Source of the DNA: a virus
Length of the DNA: 64,000 nucleotides
Reading direction: 5' to 3' (one strand)
Virus record (IMG/VR): IMGVR_UViG_3300036770_006434
Coordinates: 32,001 to 96,000 of that record
Position numbers and translations under genes: made by a program. A model generated the notes under the pieces. It was not told where the DNA came from and ran no database searches. It worked only from the letters and a program-made list of their open reading frames with translations. This document shows positions 6,918-32,210 of this stretch, piece after piece. Within the stretch, counting starts at the first letter, position 1. Every line of letters starts with the position of its first letter.

Positions 6918-7406
6918 TTACTCCTGAAACATCTCTCTGACAGTGTTTTGCATGATCTGCGCCAGCTGCGGAGACAGCGAGTAGCGCGCAGTGTTCTTCT
7001 CAATGGATGTGCGAATATTCCCGTTCTTATTGCGCTCGGTCGCGGCTTTCCAGTCGCACAGCATCTCAACCATATCGCACAACGTCATGTCCTCGACGCC
7101 GCGAGCCCAGTGCTCTGGGTGGTGTCTATTCTTGGCGTAGTGGTGCTCAATGGCTGGCTTAACCTTTTCAAGCAAAGCCTTATACTCCGGGGAGTCATAT
7201 TCTACCTTGGCCAATTCGGGCGTCCACTCGCCAAAGACCTCGGCCTCGGGCGACACCAGTTTAGACTGGTCATGTTCCCGCGCCCGCCGGTCCAGCTCCT
7301 CGATCATGAGGTAGAGGAAGTGGCGGACGCGCTGGATGTGCTTGATGGTTTCCATCTTGCCGAGAACGGTCTTGTCTGTGTCGTGGGTGCTCATATAGAT
7401 ATGCAA
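6918..7406 (-). CDS. DUF5662-like HD-type protein
   Basis: H...V...HDQSKL...HHY..NRHHPEH...E.LCDW.AA. Confidence 0.8.
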   Translation of the reverse strand: MHIYMSTHDTDKTVLGKMETIKHIQRVRHFLYLMIEELDRRAREHDQSKLVSPEAEVFGEWTPELAKVEYDSPEYKALLEKVKPAIEHHYAKNRHHPEHWARGVEDMTLCDMVEMLCDWKAATERNKNGNIRTSIEKNTARYSLSPQLAQIMQNTVREMFQE

Positions 7407-7414
7407 CCCAACGT

Positions 7415-8059
7415 TCAGAGCGGCACCGGGGTGAACTCATGGAACACCACTCGGACGACGCCGCCCTCATTGCCGGCCGCCGGGCGCTGGACGTTACAGA
7501 TTGGCAGGGTATTGACCTGATCCGGCTGCTGCCCCACGCAATCGGGCGGGTTATCGGATGAAACACAATTGTCACAACCGTAGGGATAGACTCCCACCAA
7601 CCCGGTGTTCTGGAATCGGGTAGCGTTCGCGATAACCTGAACCGGGATAGCCCCGCCATTCGAGGTCCAGTCTTCGGCGCTCAACTCGAAACCGAGAAAC
7701 GCGTTGGCCCCGCACACACAGGAAATGTCCACCGTCTCTTGGCCGCCGGGTTGGAACCCATTATTGATGATAAACTCGGCGAGGCACACGCCCTCGGGCC
7801 ACTCCGGGCATGGGCAATTCAGCGGCGGGGTCCCGAAGGAGAAGTTCCCATTGAGACCGAGACCCTCCGGCGCGATCATCCGCGTAGTCGTGCGCGCGGG
7901 CACGACGAAAGTGCCCATCAGCGGGAACAGGGGGTTGATAACGAGGCCGTCACTCAGGGTGAGCAGCCCCACGTCTTGGACGCATCCCGGGGTGGCCCCA
8001 AGGGTAATGTAGGTCAGGACGGAGTGATACGAGCGGTTGCTGATTTCTAGGTGGGTCAT
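7415..8059 (-). CDS. Cys-rich thaumatin-like (PR-5/GH64-TLP superfamily) protein
   Basis: LAEF...G.ETVDIS.V.G.N matches the thaumatin core pattern LAEF...G.D.YD(V/I)S.VDG.N; 11 Cys. Confidence 0.5.
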   Translation of the reverse strand: MTHLEISNRSYHSVLTYITLGATPGCVQDVGLLTLSDGLVINPLFPLMGTFVVPARTTTRMIAPEGLGLNGNFSFGTPPLNCPCPEWPEGVCLAEFIINNGFQPGGQETVDISCVCGANAFLGFELSAEDWTSNGGAIPVQVIANATRFQNTGLVGVYPYGCDNCVSSDNPPDCVGQQPDQVNTLPICNVQRPAAGNEGGVVRVVFHEFTPVPL

Positions 8060-8087
8060 AAAATAGATTGGGTAAACGAAAGCGTCC

Positions 8088-8801
8088 TTACTGCTCTCCC
8101 TCAGGAACCTTGAGGAGCACCGCAATACTGCGGTCCTCATGATAGCTCACGACATCGGCGTTGGCCTTCTCGAATGCCTCAAGCGCGGCGCGCAGTTGGG
8201 GAATACCATTCAGGTCGAACAGGTCCATGTCCTCCCACCCCCAAGCGTCCAGACAGTGCTCTACGACGCTCTCTGCGTCCAGCCCCTGAATGACCCGCTG
8301 TTTGCGCGTGGCCCAACAGTAGGTGGGATAATCCTCACGAGCAACCCCATCGCACGCCAAGCGGTCGTGCAGGTCCTCTACCGAGGGAAAGTAGTCATCA
8401 CCGTAGCACACCCAGCCGTCCCACTCCTCTTCGGCCACCTTCTGCGCGCGATCAAAGGCTCTGGCCTCGTTTGTGGCGCGCTGGGCGGTAAAGGCGTTGT
8501 CGTTCAGTAGCTTACGTTCGTCCTCAGTAAGGAGCGCGGTCATGATCTGCCCCTTGGCGTAAGCCCACTCTTCCGCGCCAGTCTCGTGGTCCATTTTTGG
8601 ATAGAGGAAACGGCCATAGGGCGAAAGGTCTGCGCAACGGGTGTTCAGAATGACCCGCCCTTCGCTGTCAAACACATTGGTCAGTCGGCGGCTAATTTCG
8701 GCATCAATCTCGGCGAGACGTTCGGCGGACAATAGCCCTGAGTCGCGGACCTGTTGGAGGCTTAGATAAAAACAAGGGATTTTTAGAGTGGTATCGGGCA
8801 T
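8088..8801 (-). CDS. phage hypothetical protein
   Basis: about 237-aa ORF; TTGAC-type promoter upstream. Confidence 0.65.
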   Translation of the reverse strand: MPDTTLKIPCFYLSLQQVRDSGLLSAERLAEIDAEISRRLTNVFDSEGRVILNTRCADLSPYGRFLYPKMDHETGAEEWAYAKGQIMTALLTEDERKLLNDNAFTAQRATNEARAFDRAQKVAEEEWDGWVCYGDDYFPSVEDLHDRLACDGVAREDYPTYCWATRKQRVIQGLDAESVVEHCLDAWGWEDMDLFDLNGIPQLRAALEAFEKANADVVSYHEDRSIAVLLKVPEGEQ

Positions 8802-8836
8802 GGTGCGGGATAGAATGGACCAAAATGGTCGAAAAG

Positions 8837-9139
8837 TCAATCACTTTTCTCTGGCCGCAAGACTTGAACGGTGACAAAAGTCCCGTCATCCGGGTTCCAT
8901 ATCTCTAGTCCTACAGGCTCTCCATCGCAAATGGAAAACATCCAGCGTTTATCGTTTTTCGGGCTAACCCCCAGTCCCACCAGTATTTTATGGGCGCGGG
9001 CCACGGTGTCAAGTCCGAGACCGCAGTCACGCATCAGCTCTCTAAGTCTGGCCGCGCGGCCGGGTGAAAAGTGTCGGTCTAGGGCGGCGTCTGTGAGGGC
9101 GGGTAAATCAATGGGAGTTGGTCCTTTCATGTGGACCAC
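8837..9139 (-). CDS. hypothetical protein
   Basis: ORF directly downstream of the promoter at 9140-9167. Confidence 0.55.
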   Translation of the reverse strand: MVHMKGPTPIDLPALTDAALDRHFSPGRAARLRELMRDCGLGLDTVARAHKILVGLGVSPKNDKRWMFSICDGEPVGLEIWNPDDGTFVTVQVLRPEKSD

Positions 9140-9167
9140 ATCCTACCCTCATACGGATGTAAGTCAA
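9140..9167 (-). promoter_or_regulatory. sigma70-like promoter TTGACT-N16-TAGGAT
   Basis: read directly from sequence; same 16-bp spacing as five other sites. Confidence 0.6.
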
Positions 9168-9185
9168 GCGGATTTTGCGGCAACG

Positions 9186-9719
9186 CTACAGATCAGACGC
9201 TTTCACCCAAGTCTTGTCCCGCCATTTGGCCCGCCTCCGACCAAGTGGCAGCAATCCCTTTTTCTTCCTTTTCCTGTTCTCCTTGTCCCTCTTTTTCTTA
9301 GGCATCGGACGCACCCAGACCGCGATCCAGTTCTTGCCTGATTTCTTCTCTGGCTCCCATTCGTCATCCGGTTTTGCCATCAACTTGCGGTTATACTTTT
9401 CTGCCTTCTTCAGTCTTTCCCAATCCTTAGCGGTCACCCGACGGCCAGTAGAGTCCAACCATTTTGCGATCTCATAGAATCTTGTCCCTGTTTTTTGACA
9501 GAACTCGTGGAATTCATGATGCAAATCGGTGGCAAGTGGGATTACGTCCAGCCATATAACCTCACGGCCCAATCTACGATAGTTCAGGTGATGAAGATCA
9601 AACACGGGATTTCCCGTTACAACACAACGTCCAAATTGTAACCTCGCGGAAGAACGAAAAGAAAGCCAATGAGGTGATTCAAGATAGTCTGAATACTTTT
9701 CAAAACGACGAATAGACAT
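9186..9719 (-). CDS. HNH-type endonuclease-like protein with basic C-terminal tail
   Basis: Y..YL.S..W...R, C.V.G....LHHLNY.RLG.E. Confidence 0.6.
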   Translation of the reverse strand: MSIRRFEKYSDYLESPHWLSFRSSARLQFGRCVVTGNPVFDLHHLNYRRLGREVIWLDVIPLATDLHHEFHEFCQKTGTRFYEIAKWLDSTGRRVTAKDWERLKKAEKYNRKLMAKPDDEWEPEKKSGKNWIAVWVRPMPKKKRDKENRKRKKKGLLPLGRRRAKWRDKTWVKASDL

Positions 9720-9850
9720 GGAGTAAAATACGTTACACAGTATATCTATCTATAATGTATATGTATCTAATGTCAACCCTATTCTAATGCCAAAACCCAA
9801 TTAAAGGGGCTTAACAGCGATGGGTGAACACAGTTGTCCTACACTTTTTA

Positions 9851-10025
9851 GCCGCACCTTCACCGCTTTCGCGCTGTCGCTGCGACCCATTGCCGGGCCG
9901 CAAACGTCCTCCAAGGGCTGCCGCATCTTCACCGCTTTCGCGAAGTCGCTGCGACGCCTCGTCTAAACTGACAAGGTTCCGTTGCGTTAGCCGCACTTTC
10001 ACCGCTTTCGCGAAGTCGCAGCGAC
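9851..10025 (-). CRISPR. mini CRISPR array: 3 x 36-bp repeats, 2 spacers (33 and 34 bp)
   Basis: Repeats at 9851-9886, 9920-9955 and 9990-10025 (minus consensus GTCGCAGCGACTTCGCGAAAGCGGTGAAGGTGCGGC; 1-2 mismatches each to the consensus); unique spacers at 9887-9919 and 9956-9989; 14 bp from the stop of the RuvC gene. Confidence 0.85.
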
Positions 10026-10039
10026 TTCGTTGTCACAAC

Positions 10040-10390
10040 TCACTTCGCTTCAGCATGTTCCATCCCATTCCGCGAGCGCCACTCGTTTCCGAGGTGCAGG
10101 ACTGGCTCCGCTTGGAGGATCGGTTTCCCAACCCATTCTACGGCAGATACCTGTGTGGCGCGAGCGCCTACGGGCAACTGTTCCTGCATTGCCGCGCTCG
10201 CGGCAGATGAAACACTGTTTTCACAATGAATAGACTGAGTCGCCTCAATCCGTTTCTGGTTCACGGGGACACCGCGTGACGAAAGATTTGATTCTTTCGT
10301 CACACACCTGCGTTTGCGGCCTCTCGTGAGTTTCCCCACGACAGACGTTGAACCAGACTTGCTGACCGGGTGCGTCCCGGCCGTTTCCTT
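10040..10390 (-). ncRNA. putative omegaRNA/tracr-like scaffold overlapping the 3' tail of the RuvC gene
   Basis: perfect 11-bp hairpin at 10276-10303; complementary GCCGCGAGCGC/GCGCTCGCGG segments; the ORF tail here is low-complexity and lies beyond RuvC-III. Confidence 0.45.
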
Positions 10391-11866
10391 ATCCGTTTTG
10401 GCGGATTCCGAAATTTGTCGCTCAGTTTTTTGAGCAATTGCCTGCGCGGCCATGTAGTCGCGACCCCAAACGGACCCGCAGCAGGAGCACGTCCACTCTC
10501 GGACCGATGTATCCTTGGGGCCAGTTACGTTCTCGCACTTGATACAGGTGCGGGTCGTATAGGCTTCGTTTACTTGGACCACTGACTTTGGCGTAACACT
10601 GCGTTTGGCAAAATCCTTGAGAATACCCTCGAAGTTGGACACCGCGTTGTCGGCGTCCTTCCTGCGGGCTGCCGCGATTTCGCGCGCAGTCTTTCCGTCG
10701 CGATTCTTTTCGTGTATGGCCGCAAGTTCGCGCCCCTTGCAGTGACCGATTCCAACCGTATCAAACTGGGAAAGGATGCTCCGCGCGGACAGACGGTAAT
10801 GTTCCGTCCTGACGTTGGTCAGCCGACGGGTCATGTCGTTCATTTTACGTCGGGTCTCAATCATGCCCTTCGTCTTTTTCCAGATCAGTTTGACGCCGCG
10901 TTTGATAGACCCTTTTTCGTCGTAATTGGCGGGGTTGTTCTGCCGCATCTGTCGATCCAATTTGCGCTGTAACCGCGCTTGGCGGCGCATAAAGGCGGCG
11001 TTCCTGCAAATCGGTGGCGTCACATTGCCCTGAATCTCGCCGTCTGCCGAGCTGATGGTGATGGCGCTCGTCCGTCCGGGGTCTATGCCGGCGACCGCAC
11101 CGTTGGCGGAAGCGAAATTCTTTTGAGCCACCTCTTCCGGAACGTCCAAAAACAGGGATACGTGATAAACATCGTCCTGAACCGTGACGCCGACCTGCTT
11201 GACAACGGCTTCCTTGGGAACTTCTCGGTGCAATTTGATATCAACTCGGGAGCATGAATCTCCGAACAGGGCCGACAGATTCACTTTGTCCCCACGGATC
11301 AAGTCCAAAGCGTCCAGTCGATTGGCGGCCTGAAGGGTGCAAGAATCGCCAAAACGCTTGAATCGCGGCGCGCCCTTTTTGTTGGATGGATATTGGTCGG
11401 TAGAATCTGCAAACTTCGCCAAGATGGACTGCAAAAACGCGGACCCACCCGAAAAATCTCCCCGTTTGATACCGTTGGAAACCGTCTCCTTGGCATATGT
11501 GAGAGCCAGAGTGCGGATGGAGGCCCGCTTAGCCTTGGTCCCGTCCTTGCGCAAAATGGTATCGGCCTTTTTAAGAATCTTGCCGTTTAATTCCAGAATC
11601 GCTTCTTGGCGACTCTTGCCGGCGGCCAACATGTCGTTCAATATCTTGGCGCGGGCACCGGTATTTTTCTTCTCGGCCAGAATGGATTCAAGGTTTTTGA
11701 CGACTTCGGCCTTGCGACCGTGCGAGCATTCGGATTCCACCCATTTCATTGCGCCGACCAAAGCGTTCCAGACCTTGCGGGATTGGCGCTGGGCATCTCT
11801 GATAGCCGGAATTTGCCCATCATTTGGGTAAATCCTGTATTTGTAGATCAGCGTGGTAAGAGTCAC
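10040..11866 (-). CDS. TnpB/Cas12f-like RNA-guided RuvC nuclease (608 aa) with rearranged RuvC-II
   Basis: N-terminal YKYRIYP; GAPRFK; RuvC-I AGIDPG; bridge helix QRKLDRQ.RQNNP.NY; RuvC-II VGIGH (E absent); VNEAYTTRTC; CxxC...CxxC; RuvC-III RDYMAA.AI. Confidence 0.9.
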   Translation of the reverse strand: MTLTTLIYKYRIYPNDGQIPAIRDAQRQSRKVWNALVGAMKWVESECSHGRKAEVVKNLESILAEKKNTGARAKILNDMLAAGKSRQEAILELNGKILKKADTILRKDGTKAKRASIRTLALTYAKETVSNGIKRGDFSGGSAFLQSILAKFADSTDQYPSNKKGAPRFKRFGDSCTLQAANRLDALDLIRGDKVNLSALFGDSCSRVDIKLHREVPKEAVVKQVGVTVQDDVYHVSLFLDVPEEVAQKNFASANGAVAGIDPGRTSAITISSADGEIQGNVTPPICRNAAFMRRQARLQRKLDRQMRQNNPANYDEKGSIKRGVKLIWKKTKGMIETRRKMNDMTRRLTNVRTEHYRLSARSILSQFDTVGIGHCKGRELAAIHEKNRDGKTAREIAAARRKDADNAVSNFEGILKDFAKRSVTPKSVVQVNEAYTTRTCIKCENVTGPKDTSVREWTCSCCGSVWGRDYMAAQAIAQKTERQISESAKTDKETAGTHPVSKSGSTSVVGKLTRGRKRRCVTKESNLSSRGVPVNQKRIEATQSIHCENSVSSAASAAMQEQLPVGARATQVSAVEWVGKPILQAEPVLHLGNEWRSRNGMEHAEAK

Positions 11867-11874
11867 TTCCCACC

Positions 11875-11902
11875 ATTATACAAGAATTGTCCTTGGCGTC
11901 AA
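11875..11902 (-). promoter_or_regulatory. sigma70-like promoter TTGACG-N16-TATAAT for the RuvC gene (near-leaderless)
   Basis: perfect -10 box ends 8 nt before the GTG start at 11866. Confidence 0.75.
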
Positions 11903-11991
11903 GGGGTTTTTAAGCAGACTCAGGTCACTTTGGTCGGCTCACTTTGGAGTCGCGCCGCCTGCCAGAGCGCAAAATGATGGTGTGTAAACCC

Positions 11992-12126
11992 TTAAAACAG
12001 GAACCCGCCAATGACGAGACCCGCCAGTCCAACTGCCAACACGATCTTGCCGGAATACGACTTGCCAAGAAACGCTTGGAAATGGGAGAAAGCGGCGGTA
12101 AGGAAGGATTTCAGTTTTTCGTTCAT
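11992..12126 (-). CDS. 44-aa membrane peptide (not in the ORF track)
   Basis: MNEKLKSFLTAAFSHFQAFLGKSYSGKIVLAVGLAGLVIGGFLF; C-terminal TM helix. Confidence 0.55.
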   Translation of the reverse strand: MNEKLKSFLTAAFSHFQAFLGKSYSGKIVLAVGLAGLVIGGFLF

Positions 12127-12189
12127 GGTATCCTGAGTTACACAGAAATCCCATTGGTTTCAGCCACTATTAGCTGATCTAATGGTATG

Positions 12190-12798
12190 TTACACCAACA
12201 GGAATGGCCGCCAGTCAGGGTGTCTAACCTCCCGAATGGTGACGGAGGCCGGCAGAGCCGGAGGCGCGACTGGTTTGCGAATAAGGGCGAGGCCGACTTC
12301 GTGGTTTAACCTGTTACTCTTCATGGAGTTCAGCTTTTTGTCCGCTACCACCATGTTGCTCCATTCATCCTTGCCGCCTCGGTCCTTGGGAATGACATGG
12401 TCAATATTCAACTGGTGACGCGGCAGTTTACGGCCGGTATACTGACATACGGAATTATCCCGTGCAAATATGGCCCCGGCTGACAGGCGCGGCCTTTTCA
12501 TAGGCATTTCCCCGTAGTTTTTGCTCACGACCACGGTCGGCACCCTGATCATTCTGGTCGCAGTCCTGACGTGAAGGTCTCCCGCGCGGACCGGGAGTTC
12601 GATCCACTCATCCCAACCCACGGGATTCGCGTAAATCAATTCGCCGTTTTCCATCTGGATGTCCAGCGCCAAAACCGGGGGCTCGCCGCCGGACTCGGAG
12701 CACAGAGAGGTGATGGCGGATTTCACGGTTTTTACGGAAATCGGCTGCCACTTGGAGTTCAGGCAGAGGGTTAGATGGGAGTCTAGGATGTGTGACAC
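12190..12798 (-). CDS. HNH endonuclease (McrA-like)
   Basis: IFARD...CQYTG....NIDHVIPK.RGG...W.N.V....LN..K. Confidence 0.9.
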   Translation of the reverse strand: MSHILDSHLTLCLNSKWQPISVKTVKSAITSLCSESGGEPPVLALDIQMENGELIYANPVGWDEWIELPVRAGDLHVRTATRMIRVPTVVVSKNYGEMPMKRPRLSAGAIFARDNSVCQYTGRKLPRHQLNIDHVIPKDRGGKDEWSNMVVADKKLNSMKSNRLNHEVGLALIRKPVAPPALPASVTIREVRHPDWRPFLLV

Positions 12799-12816
12799 GG
12801 TCTATGATTTTGCGGT

Positions 12817-12844
12817 ATTCTATGGAATCGGGGTAAGAGGTCAA
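12817..12844 (-). promoter_or_regulatory. sigma70-like promoter TTGACC-N16-TAGAAT
   Basis: directly upstream of the HNH gene. Confidence 0.6.
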
Positions 12845-12859
12845 GCAGAAAAGAGAATG

Positions 12860-12949
12860 CGGTGAGCTAAGGTATCGCGCCCTAGGGCCAGAGTTACTGT
12901 CCCCCACGAAGGTTCAAACTTCGGTCAATGCTTCATTGATTAACTCACC
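12860..12949 (-). tRNA. tRNA-Ser(TGA)-like
   Basis: GGTGAGT/GCTCACC acceptor; CGAAG-TTTGAAC-CTTCG anticodon arm; long V arm; atypical T loop; no CCA. Confidence 0.6.
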
Positions 12950-12955
12950 ATAAAA

Positions 12956-13035
12956 TGGCGCAAGCGAGAGGGAATGATCCTCCATGTATCCAGTTACCCT
13001 TTCTGCGGTTTAGGAAACCGAGGGGATACGCCTGC
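12956..13035 (-). tRNA. aberrant tRNA-Arg(CCT)-like RNA lacking a normal D arm
   Basis: GCAGGCG/CGCTTGC-G-CCA acceptor; CGGT-TTCCTAA-ACCG; GTATCC/GGATAC pairing flanks the anticodon arm. Confidence 0.5.
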
Positions 13036-13045
13036 GTAAGATTGT

Positions 13046-13546
13046 CTACCGATGTGCCGCGAACCAAGCATCTCTCTCCGGCGCTCGTCGCCCGGTTTCG
13101 GCGCTCACGAAGGTTTCCATCTCCCCGTCGCGCCCCATGATGGCGTCTGCATGTTTGATCATCAGCTGGTTGGGGCACACGAACGGGCCGCGCACAGAGA
13201 CGATTAACTGATAGGCATCGGCATACGATATACCATGCCAAACTAGCCAGATAAAGGCGGCGGCGCTGGAGCGGGAAACGCCGGCAAAGCAATGGAAGAG
13301 GATACGATGATTGAGCGCAGTCTGGGCGTAGATTCCCAGTAGCCGGCGCATGGTATCCTCCGTGACCGCCTGTTTATTCGCGGGGTCTCCGGTATCGTCA
13401 AATACGAAGCTGTGCAAAGCGAAGTCCCCTTTGAAAGCGCGAATATCCGGCGCGGGCTGCCGAGAGTCGCGGATAGAGATGATGTGGTCTAGGGGAGTGG
13501 CAGCGAAGGATGGGACCTCGTGGACGCCGCAGATGAAAAGGGGCAT
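13046..13546 (-). CDS. PTP/dual-specificity-type phosphatase
   Basis: HCFAGVSRS (Cx5R) P-loop; FDD general-acid loop. Confidence 0.85.
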   Translation of the reverse strand: MPLFICGVHEVPSFAATPLDHIISIRDSRQPAPDIRAFKGDFALHSFVFDDTGDPANKQAVTEDTMRRLLGIYAQTALNHRILFHCFAGVSRSSAAAFIWLVWHGISYADAYQLIVSVRGPFVCPNQLMIKHADAIMGRDGEMETFVSAETGRRAPERDAWFAAHR

Positions 13547-31465: not shown

Positions 31466-32210
31466 TCTGTATCGAGCCTTTTTGTTCAAGAAGCGCATAC
31501 GTTGTTCCGGTGTCTATACAGTAAGACCTGCCCTTTCGACGCGGTAATTCGTCGCTCGAATGGCCGACGATTTGTGGATACGGCAGATTATCCTCGAATT
31601 CTGTGTCCCAGTCAAGCCATAAAGGGCCACCGTTATCGTAGGAGCCGCCCCGCGAGAAACCAACTGCAAAAAGGTGGTCCGGGCGATACGGTGCCATTTC
31701 CAGCGCGGCTTCCGCTTTCTGGTTCAGGTTCGCCAAATTTTCCACGTCCGTCAAATGGTTCCACCAGTAATTCTCCCTGATTCCGGCGTGGGACAGAAGC
31801 CACCCATTGGCAAGCACAAATAACCGGACTTTTTGCCAGATGACCCACTCCATCTCCTTCGCGATTTCCAGAGACTTGCCGTTGGAATAACCTGCACAGG
31901 AATTTAGCAGCGGGATTTTTTTCTTGAACTGCTTGCTGCTGAAATGGGATTCAAGGTATGGGAGTTCGTGATTCCCGGCCAGCACCGTAACATCCTTGCG
32001 CTCAATCAGTTTGCGATACCAGCGCGCGGTCTCTCGGATTCCTGTAACAGCCGGGGGCTCGTCAAAAGAGTCAAACACGTCCCCGAGGAATACGATGTGG
32101 TCGTAATTCCCGGCCTCTTTCTCAAGAACGGCGTCCGCCCAGTTTGTTCTCTGGTGAATGTCGGAGATGACTAGGATGCGGTCAGCGGAAATGGAGAATG
32201 AGTCTGACAT
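31362..32210 (-). CDS. calcineurin-like metallophosphoesterase
   Basis: SDIH, GDVFD, GNHE, SHAG, IVGHS. Confidence 0.9.
   Translation of the reverse strand: MSDSFSISADRILVISDIHQRTNWADAVLEKEAGNYDHIVFLGDVFDSFDEPPAVTGIRETARWYRKLIERKDVTVLAGNHELPYLESHFSSKQFKKKIPLLNSCAGYSNGKSLEIAKEMEWVIWQKVRLFVLANGWLLSHAGIRENYWWNHLTDVENLANLNQKAEAALEMAPYRPDHLFAVGFSRGGSYDNGGPLWLDWDTEFEDNLPYPQIVGHSSDELPRRKGRSYCIDTGTTYALLEQKGSIQIKSLQQLNSSGKWHWEPVAAPVRDDTPPVTATFP

Follow-up and report, generated by a model that had tools for sequence, protein, structure and literature searches.

Does a RuvC nuclease that lacks the glutamate at its usual RuvC-II position, and whose gene is followed directly by a short CRISPR-like array, still cut DNA, or has it turned into an RNA-guided repressor? 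The question is raised by a gene for a 608-amino-acid protein of the TnpB/Cas12 superfamily, located on a 64,000-nt stretch of viral DNA (positions 32,001 to 96,000 of IMG/VR record IMGVR_UViG_3300036770_006434) that is referred to below as the window. An initial annotation, made without database searches, had left both options open, i.e. an active nuclease with a rearranged site and an unusual pairing with CRISPR, or a repressor. Judging from the conservation of the site and by analogy to characterized relatives, we conclude that the enzyme is most likely catalytically active. The locus as a whole is probably best explained as encoding an active RNA-guided DNA endonuclease of the TnpB superfamily, belonging to the lineage with a rearranged RuvC site (the TnpB2 / RIIr / pro-Fanzor-Fanzor type) and taking its guides from the array. 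The gene and the motifs in question are the following:

10040-11866, minus strand: nuclease open reading frame (ORF), 608 amino acids, GTG start; TnpB/Cas12 superfamily, with a folded core (residues 1-498) and a disordered tail (residues 499-608)
11075-11089, minus strand: RuvC-I motif GIDPG, residues 260-264, with the catalytic Asp D262 (codon 11081-11083) and the 'DPG' signature of the Fanzor/pro-Fanzor lineage
10742-10756, minus strand: canonical RuvC-II position, VGIGH, residues 371-375, where Gly374 (codon 10745-10747) replaces the usual Glu
10544-10573, minus strand: VNEAYTTRTC, residues 432-441, with the alternative Glu434 (codon 10565-10567)
10478-10546, minus strand: zinc ribbon (TNB), CxxC 441-444 and CxxC 460-463 (C441/C444/C460/C463)
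10445-10462, minus strand: RuvC-III motif RDYMAA, residues 469-474, with D470 (codon 10457-10459)

According to the alignment and an AlphaFold2 (AF2) model, the protein has a split RuvC domain of the RNase H fold, comprising motifs I, II and III; the TNB zinc ribbon is inserted between RuvC-II and RuvC-III. The motif layout reported in the initial annotation for positions 10440-11100 was recovered in every detail: the aspartates of RuvC-I and RuvC-III are intact, the usual glutamate position is taken by a glycine, and the glutamate that had been placed some 60 residues further on, just ahead of the zinc ribbon, lies exactly 60 residues from G374 and is separated by six residues from the first zinc cysteine, C441. 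These distances agree with the published definition of the lineage, in which the alternative glutamate is found ~45-60 residues downstream and about six residues ahead of the zinc finger (PMC10530073, PMC13565253), while the Fanzor/pro-Fanzor lineage has been defined by the combination of a DPG motif in RuvC-I with the alternative glutamate (PMC10711439).

That such a layout occurs in Fanzors and a subset of TnpBs had also been noted in the initial annotation, and the correspondence holds residue for residue. A HMMER alignment to ApmFanzor2 (PDB 9b0l) pairs D262 with D324, G374 with the Gly of ICIGK, E434 with E467 and D470 with D501. In Fanzor2's cryo-electron microscopy structure the Mg-binding triad consists of D324, E467 and D501, with the glutamate ~50 residues away from its canonical place (PMC11832414), and cleavage is abolished in the D324A and E467A mutants (PMC10530073). 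A prokaryotic counterpart, the archaeal rearranged TvTnpB, is an active nuclease that depends on a transposon-adjacent motif (TAM) (PMC10530073). In the AF2 secondary structure of the window protein, G374 closes the strand 370-374, E434 directly follows the strand 428-432, and D470 opens the helix 469-496. The modeled position of E434 agrees with the beta5 (RuvX-like) placement of the alternative glutamate given for the RIIr clades in a survey in PNAS (PMC10691335). On the basis of alignment and model, the catalytic triad would thus probably be formed by D262 (end of beta1), E434 (just after beta5) and D470 (start of the RuvC-III helix), with Gly374 at the canonical beta4 position.

An exhaustive homolog search yielded 659 related cluster representatives, of which 41 have E < 1e-30. 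Both glutamate columns were aligned in 136 of the best 160 homologs, and within this set the two positions are almost perfectly mutually exclusive: 77 of the 136 combine Gly at the canonical position with Glu at the alternative one, 53 have Glu at the canonical and another residue at the alternative position, and two have Glu at both (the remainder being one protein with Gly and a non-Glu residue, and three with other residues and non-Glu). The six-residue distance between the alternative glutamate and the first zinc cysteine is found in 65 of the 77 rearranged homologs, and the DPG motif in 59 of 70 rearranged versus 2 of 53 canonical homologs. In an alignment of 52 relatives with a mean column identity of 17%, no variation is seen at D262, G264, G374, E434, C441, C444 and C460, and conservation reaches at least 90% at D470 and C463; the pattern lies far beyond what chance would produce.

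A tree of 119 proteins, drawn from the homologs found in the search, unites all 68 rearranged proteins in one clade (69 rows; support of 95 in the Shimodaira-Hasegawa-like approximate likelihood ratio test, SH-aLRT). At its base stand ordinary TnpBs of 351-402 amino acids, including an annotated Pseudomonas luteola InsQ/TnpB, and the window protein is nested deep within it. As far as can be read from these alignments, the D/G/E/D layout is an inherited and selected trait of a known lineage and not something special to this gene, a finding that speaks in favor of catalytic activity. Where only this locus is concerned, the implication is that the odd order of motifs represents a functional arrangement already known, rather than an indication that the enzyme has been inactivated.

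The overall fold points in the same family direction. Pfam recognizes Cas12f1-like_TNB (PF07282, 4e-11) and, at the N terminus, HTH_OrfB_IS605. The AF2 model, for which the 52 relatives were used, has high confidence in residues 1-498 (mean predicted local distance difference test score, pLDDT, of 82) and shows the tail, residues 499-608, as disordered (pLDDT <40). Its top structural match is ISDra2 TnpB (Z 23.9, root-mean-square deviation 3.3 A over 325 residues), followed by TnpB 8iaz (Z 21.0), the mimivirus Fanzor2 (Z 17.7) and Cas12f, LaTranC and Cas12m2 (Z 15-17). Because these are its best matches, the modeled protein is described as a TnpB-like core with extra helices in the recognition (REC) lobe. 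Upstream of the gene lies one further element:

11875-11902, minus strand: sigma-70-like promoter TTGACG-16-TATAAT, matching 11 of 12 consensus positions

Since its -10 box ends 8 nt upstream of the GTG start, a distance into which a Shine-Dalgarno sequence would not fit, the nuclease mRNA is probably leaderless.

On its other side the gene is followed by repeats:

9848-10025, minus strand: mini CRISPR-like array of three 39-nt repeats (10025-9987, 9955-9917 and 9886-9848)
9986-9956 (31 nt) and 9916-9887 (30 nt), minus strand: the spacers of this array

The first repeat begins 15 nt past the stop codon, the three copies are 85-100% identical with a spacing of 69/70 nt, and within the 190,671-bp genome the repeat occurs at this array only, the system being present in one copy. 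The effector is thus linked to a CRISPR-like array, as had been annotated. The pairing had also been called unusual, which does not hold in the sense of being unique to this locus, for arrays recur across the lineage: they were found in 10 of ~17 informative locus groups, mostly on phage-like contigs, with up to 13 repeats and a repeat period of 69-76 nt throughout, and the proteins concerned belong to no fewer than three subclades with good support within the rearranged clade. The array-bearing relatives (L, locus; P, protein) are:

L003 (P0002): 2 repeats, the array overlapping the stop codon
L011: 2 repeats
L024 / L026: 2 repeats
L027: 2-3 repeats
L033, a metagenome-assembled genome (MAG) of Chthoniobacterales: 4 repeats, the array overlapping the stop codon
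L036 (P0071, 716 amino acids), L036:4723-5651: 13 repeats of 38 nt with spacers of 35-36 nt, on a contig with periplasmic binding-protein genes
L039 (P0026): at least 2 repeats, where the contig ends
L040 (P0078, 676 amino acids), L040:1599-1857 and L040:4106-4368: 4 + 4 copies of the same 37-nt repeat, one array on either side of the gene, with Mu-like phage surroundings
L043 (P0018): at least 2 repeats, where the contig ends

Among the relative loci examined, no array was present at L001, L013-16, L020-23, L034, L038 and the basal TnpB locus L044. L001, which lies on a 219-kb phage and is the closest relative on a long contig, has a scaffold that ends in a single repeat-like segment. One homolog subgroup (L006-L010) carries, in the place of CRISPR-like arrays, long tandem arrays with a period of ~96 nt and with internal sub-repeats, at a downstream distance of ~300-900 nt from the homolog (e.g. 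L009:5057-5777).

The region that connects the gene to its array has features that may be those of a guide RNA:

10040-10372, minus strand: 3' tail of the ORF (residues 499-608), a probable omegaRNA- or tracrRNA (trans-activating CRISPR RNA)-like scaffold, disordered at the protein level and apparently constrained at the nucleotide level
10031-10052, minus strand: putative anti-repeat across the stop codon, immediately ahead of repeat 1, predicted to pair with the 5' half of the repeat (z -3.4)

The points that follow on RNA architecture are drawn from four to eight loci. Nucleotide blocks that are conserved and complementary to one another occur in the tail. In a comparison of L003 with L001, the frequencies of differences at the three codon positions are 0.35/0.23/0.62 in the core, i.e. 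the usual excess at the third position, and 0.37/0.31/0.36 in the tail, which has no such excess; at the same time nucleotide identity is higher in the tail than in the core (0.65 vs 0.60) and amino acid identity is lower (0.47 vs 0.60). For these reasons the constraint on the tail of the ORF appears to act at the RNA level, in the way of an omegaRNA that overlaps tnpB. The same arrangement of the anti-repeat, with different sequences, is found at L033 (z -4.5), L003 (z -2.9) and L011 (z -2.1), and in the window its pairing with repeats 2 and 3 is at least as good as that with repeat 1. To judge from these patterns, the array looks as if the 3' end of an anti-repeat-bearing omegaRNA had been multiplied, which would be a TranC-like intermediate state. 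Rfam gave no match at E <= 1, and a 27-nt inverted repeat (70%) between the ORF tail and repeat 2/spacer 2 was judged to be due to chance.

The mechanism that we propose is the following. A single transcript from the leaderless promoter would probably be the source of the guides; the last ~330 nt of the ORF would serve as scaffold, the anti-repeat at the stop codon would pair with the 5' half of each 39-nt repeat, and a guide of ~30 nt would follow each repeat, namely the two spacers and possibly the flank past the last repeat. By analogy to the characterized rearranged-site enzymes, the complex would cut double-stranded DNA complementary to the guide beside a TAM or protospacer-adjacent motif (PAM), with little or no collateral cleavage of single-stranded DNA.

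The genomic setting is that of a phage. The record is complete (190,671 bp, with direct terminal repeats) and carries bacterial-type promoters and HNH genes, while the contexts of homologs include Phage_lysozyme and Phage_Mu_F; relatives of the nuclease were found in soil metagenomes and in MAGs of Chthoniobacterales. The nuclease gene is flanked by:

12190-12798, minus strand: HNH endonuclease gene (Pfam HNH_4/HNH/HNH_5)
9186-9719, minus strand: ORF of 177 amino acids on the opposite flank, with a His-rich HNH-like stretch and no Pfam match

A DUF5662 protein and a phosphatase-like protein are encoded nearby. The seven neighboring ORFs that were scanned (6918-13546) gave no match to cas1, cas2, cas4 or another Cas family, and none to a transposase (tnpA) or recombinase family. 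At one of the relative loci (L039:392-2499) the nuclease homolog directly follows genes for dihydrofolate reductase (DHFR), dCMP deaminase and C5 DNA methylase, a neighborhood of phage nucleotide modification.

Other explanations have to be set beside that of an active, array-guided nuclease. The rearrangement of the RuvC site could be an artefact of alignment, with a canonical glutamate situated near VGIGH and E434 irrelevant. Such a mis-registration had been named in the initial annotation as a possible error, and none was found: the only glutamate nearby, E380, is six residues after G374, but lies in a loop of low confidence (pLDDT <50) and is absent from every homolog, so that it was rejected, whereas G374 and E434 are invariant and their columns covary with the canonical/rearranged split. 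We give this explanation next to no credence. More is to be said for a selfish or homing element of the TnpB type, in which an active nuclease uses a single omegaRNA guided by the flanking DNA and the additional repeats are a recent, non-functional duplication of its 3' end. L001 with its one repeat-like scaffold end, the other arrayless relatives, the divergence between the repeats of the window and the adjoining HNH endonuclease gene all fit such an element. Against it stands the recurrence of arrays (2-13 repeats, unique spacers, a constant period of 69-76 nt) in at least three well-separated subclades, which argues for selection, as well as the absence of tnpA among the scanned neighbors, the single genome copy, and an anti-repeat that pairs with repeats 2 and 3 no less well than with repeat 1. 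On balance a selfish element of this kind seems unlikely.

Several observations weigh against an active, array-guided nuclease. Identity among the three repeats is imperfect, at 85-90%, an adaptation module is missing among the scanned neighbors, and the placement of E434 in the site is drawn from homology and from its position in the predicted secondary structure. For neither spacer was a protospacer found in the genome of this phage, among GenBank phages or in IMG/VR (in the phage genome itself there is no second match at up to 3 mismatches, in GenBank phages only matches of 19-20 nt or longer imperfect ones were found, at E >= 0.2, and in IMG/VR there is no exact match of 22-23 nt). The remaining points of this kind speak for a specific alternative, namely a nuclease-dead, RNA-guided DNA binder (a Cas12m/TldR-like repressor) that would silence genes of the host or of competitors and would have kept its acidic residues for RNA processing or structure. 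The best PDB sequence matches by E-value are Cas12m proteins, some of them non-cutting, and inactivation, as read from the residues lost, does occur in the lineage: P0025, P0034, P0035, P0036 and P0052, all members of the rearranged clade, have a substituted catalytic Asp (D to N in RuvC-I; D to K, E or G in RuvC-III) and are candidate nuclease-dead derivatives (TldR/Cas12m-like) within the Fanzor-type branch. The tiny array, the lack of adaptation genes among the scanned neighbors and the lack of detected targets would fit a repressor as well. The Cas12m matches, however, are confined to the C-terminal residues ~300-490 and have the canonical layout, the Asp losses are not shared by the window protein, and known dead derivatives have degenerate RuvC motifs, whereas here D, the alternative E, D and the four zinc cysteines are kept. 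Moreover, the rearranged-site enzymes assayed so far do cleave (PMC10530073). Since triad and zinc cysteines show little or no variation among 52 diverged relatives, we consider an active enzyme much more probable than a dead one, and a repressor quite improbable. Of the two options left by the initial annotation, the active nuclease is hence backed by the alignment with the Fanzor2 triad, its conservation and its covariation, and nothing in the protein's own sequence supports the repressor.

With respect to the biological role of an active, array-guided nuclease, a use directed at rival phages, or at other DNA inside the infected cell, is likely, given the analogy to phage mini-arrays and phage-encoded type V systems, for which inter-phage competition has been discussed (review PMC11656645); a role in homing is the main alternative function. 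Spacer 1 does not occur in the related 219-kb phage record, there are no cross-matches among the spacers and the fetched relative loci, and the spacers of the 13-repeat array of L036 gave no hit among either GenBank phages or PLSDB plasmids. In the 4-repeat array of L033, the 3'-terminal 18 nt of spacer 2 (L033:4717-4752) match the same contig exactly at L033:6711-6728, 2 kb downstream; either chance, the DNA being GC-rich, or partial self-targeting may account for this.

The rearranged active site as such is already known (PMC10530073, PMC10691335, PMC10711439, PMC11832414, PMC13565253). It sets Fanzors and TnpB2 apart from canonical TnpBs and from the structurally solved Cas12 relatives that were compared, and it has been linked to an absence of collateral cleavage of single-stranded DNA. 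Relative to the literature compared, a CRISPR-array-linked, phage-borne radiation of the Fanzor-type branch is moderately novel, since the characterized CRISPR relatives differ (Cas12m has the canonical Glu, and LaTranC and Cas12f, as far as they align, lack the alternative one). The group may, nevertheless, already have been catalogued without characterization (among the V-U groups, the RIIr branches or the TranC clades), and the PNAS survey mentions an altered RuvC-II in "TnpB (or Cas12)" (PMC10691335). We therefore suggest only tentatively that a large, mostly phage-borne radiation with DPG and the alternative glutamate is now array-guided (2 to 13 or more repeats) and makes up an unrecognized type V-like group.

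Should this be true, it would contradict the description of the shifted-glutamate site as a branch separate from the Cas12 CRISPR effectors in the Fanzor2 paper (PMC11832414), as well as the view that the prokaryotic members form a restricted IS607 clade of cyanobacteria (PMC10711439). Fanzors would have a much wider range of prokaryotic relatives than has been assumed, and one more branch, a very different one, would have gone from omegaRNA to CRISPR array. There would then be a set of nucleases with a core of ~500 amino acids and a Fanzor-type site that take ordinary repeat-spacer guides, i.e. compact CRISPR-programmable nucleases that may lack collateral activity.

Where the system stands among known ones is best seen from the features it shares with each. 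ApmFanzor2 (ApmFz2 / L79, of Acanthamoeba polyphaga mimivirus) agrees with the window protein in its active site (the Asp of GIDPG, a Gly where the canonical Glu would be, the Glu of VNE six residues ahead of the zinc ribbon, and the Asp of RD), in its TnpB-like fold (Z 17.7), and in being carried by a large virus. Its own traits are a virus of eukaryotes, a nuclear localization signal, an N-terminal extension, a transposon location and a single omegaRNA, whereas the window protein is from a bacteriophage, has another REC insertion and a repeat-spacer array, and shares ~16% structure-based identity. Fanzors are delimited by a eukaryotic host or a virus of eukaryotes, and the present record is a phage. 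The prokaryotic rearranged TnpBs (TnpB2 such as TvTnpB, RIIr-3/-4/-5 and the cyanobacterial pro-Fanzors) share the change of the beta4 Glu to Gly and the downstream Glu; they are, however, proteins of ~350-420 amino acids that reside in IS605/IS607 transposons with TnpA and use omegaRNA, as opposed to 608 amino acids (core ~500), a mini array and no transposase among the scanned neighbors. Pro-Fanzors in the strict sense have an IS607 TnpA and a cyanobacterial host, as opposed to the phage record here, with no recombinase in the scanned neighbors. The PNAS survey reports RIIr-4 as virus-specific (PMC10691335). ISDra2 TnpB is the best structural match and has a guide scaffold that overlaps the 3' end of its ORF, as is probable for the window gene, and differs in its canonical RuvC-II Glu, its lack of an array, its length of 408 amino acids and its IS200/IS605 transposon.

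Among the CRISPR-related systems, Cas12m and TldR are also derived from TnpB, and the best E-values in PDB, over the C-terminal part with RuvC and zinc ribbon, come from Cas12m; both are repressors with degenerate catalytic sites, in contrast to the intact and conserved triad of the window protein. CasPhi (Cas12j) and CasLambda resemble the present system as single-effector type V systems of huge phages with small arrays and no adaptation genes, and differ in having a canonical RuvC and in forming separate lineages within the superfamily (Z ~11). With type V effectors in general the gene shares the adjoining direct repeats with unique spacers, an association that recurs in its relatives, and it differs from them in having no adaptation module among the scanned neighbors, although such a module is absent from many type V subtypes. 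The likeness to Cas12f and TranC (e.g. LaTranC) extends to compact TnpB-derived effectors, short downstream arrays and an anti-repeat or tracrRNA-like element, putative in the window, as well as to the structure (Z 16-17); in the part that aligns, the alternative position is not a Glu in either LaTranC or Cas12f, which agrees with a canonical layout. TranC works with a split pair of tracrRNA and CRISPR RNA (crRNA) and also with a single reRNA, and the putative anti-repeat beside the first repeat of the window is compatible with a guide use of the TranC type.

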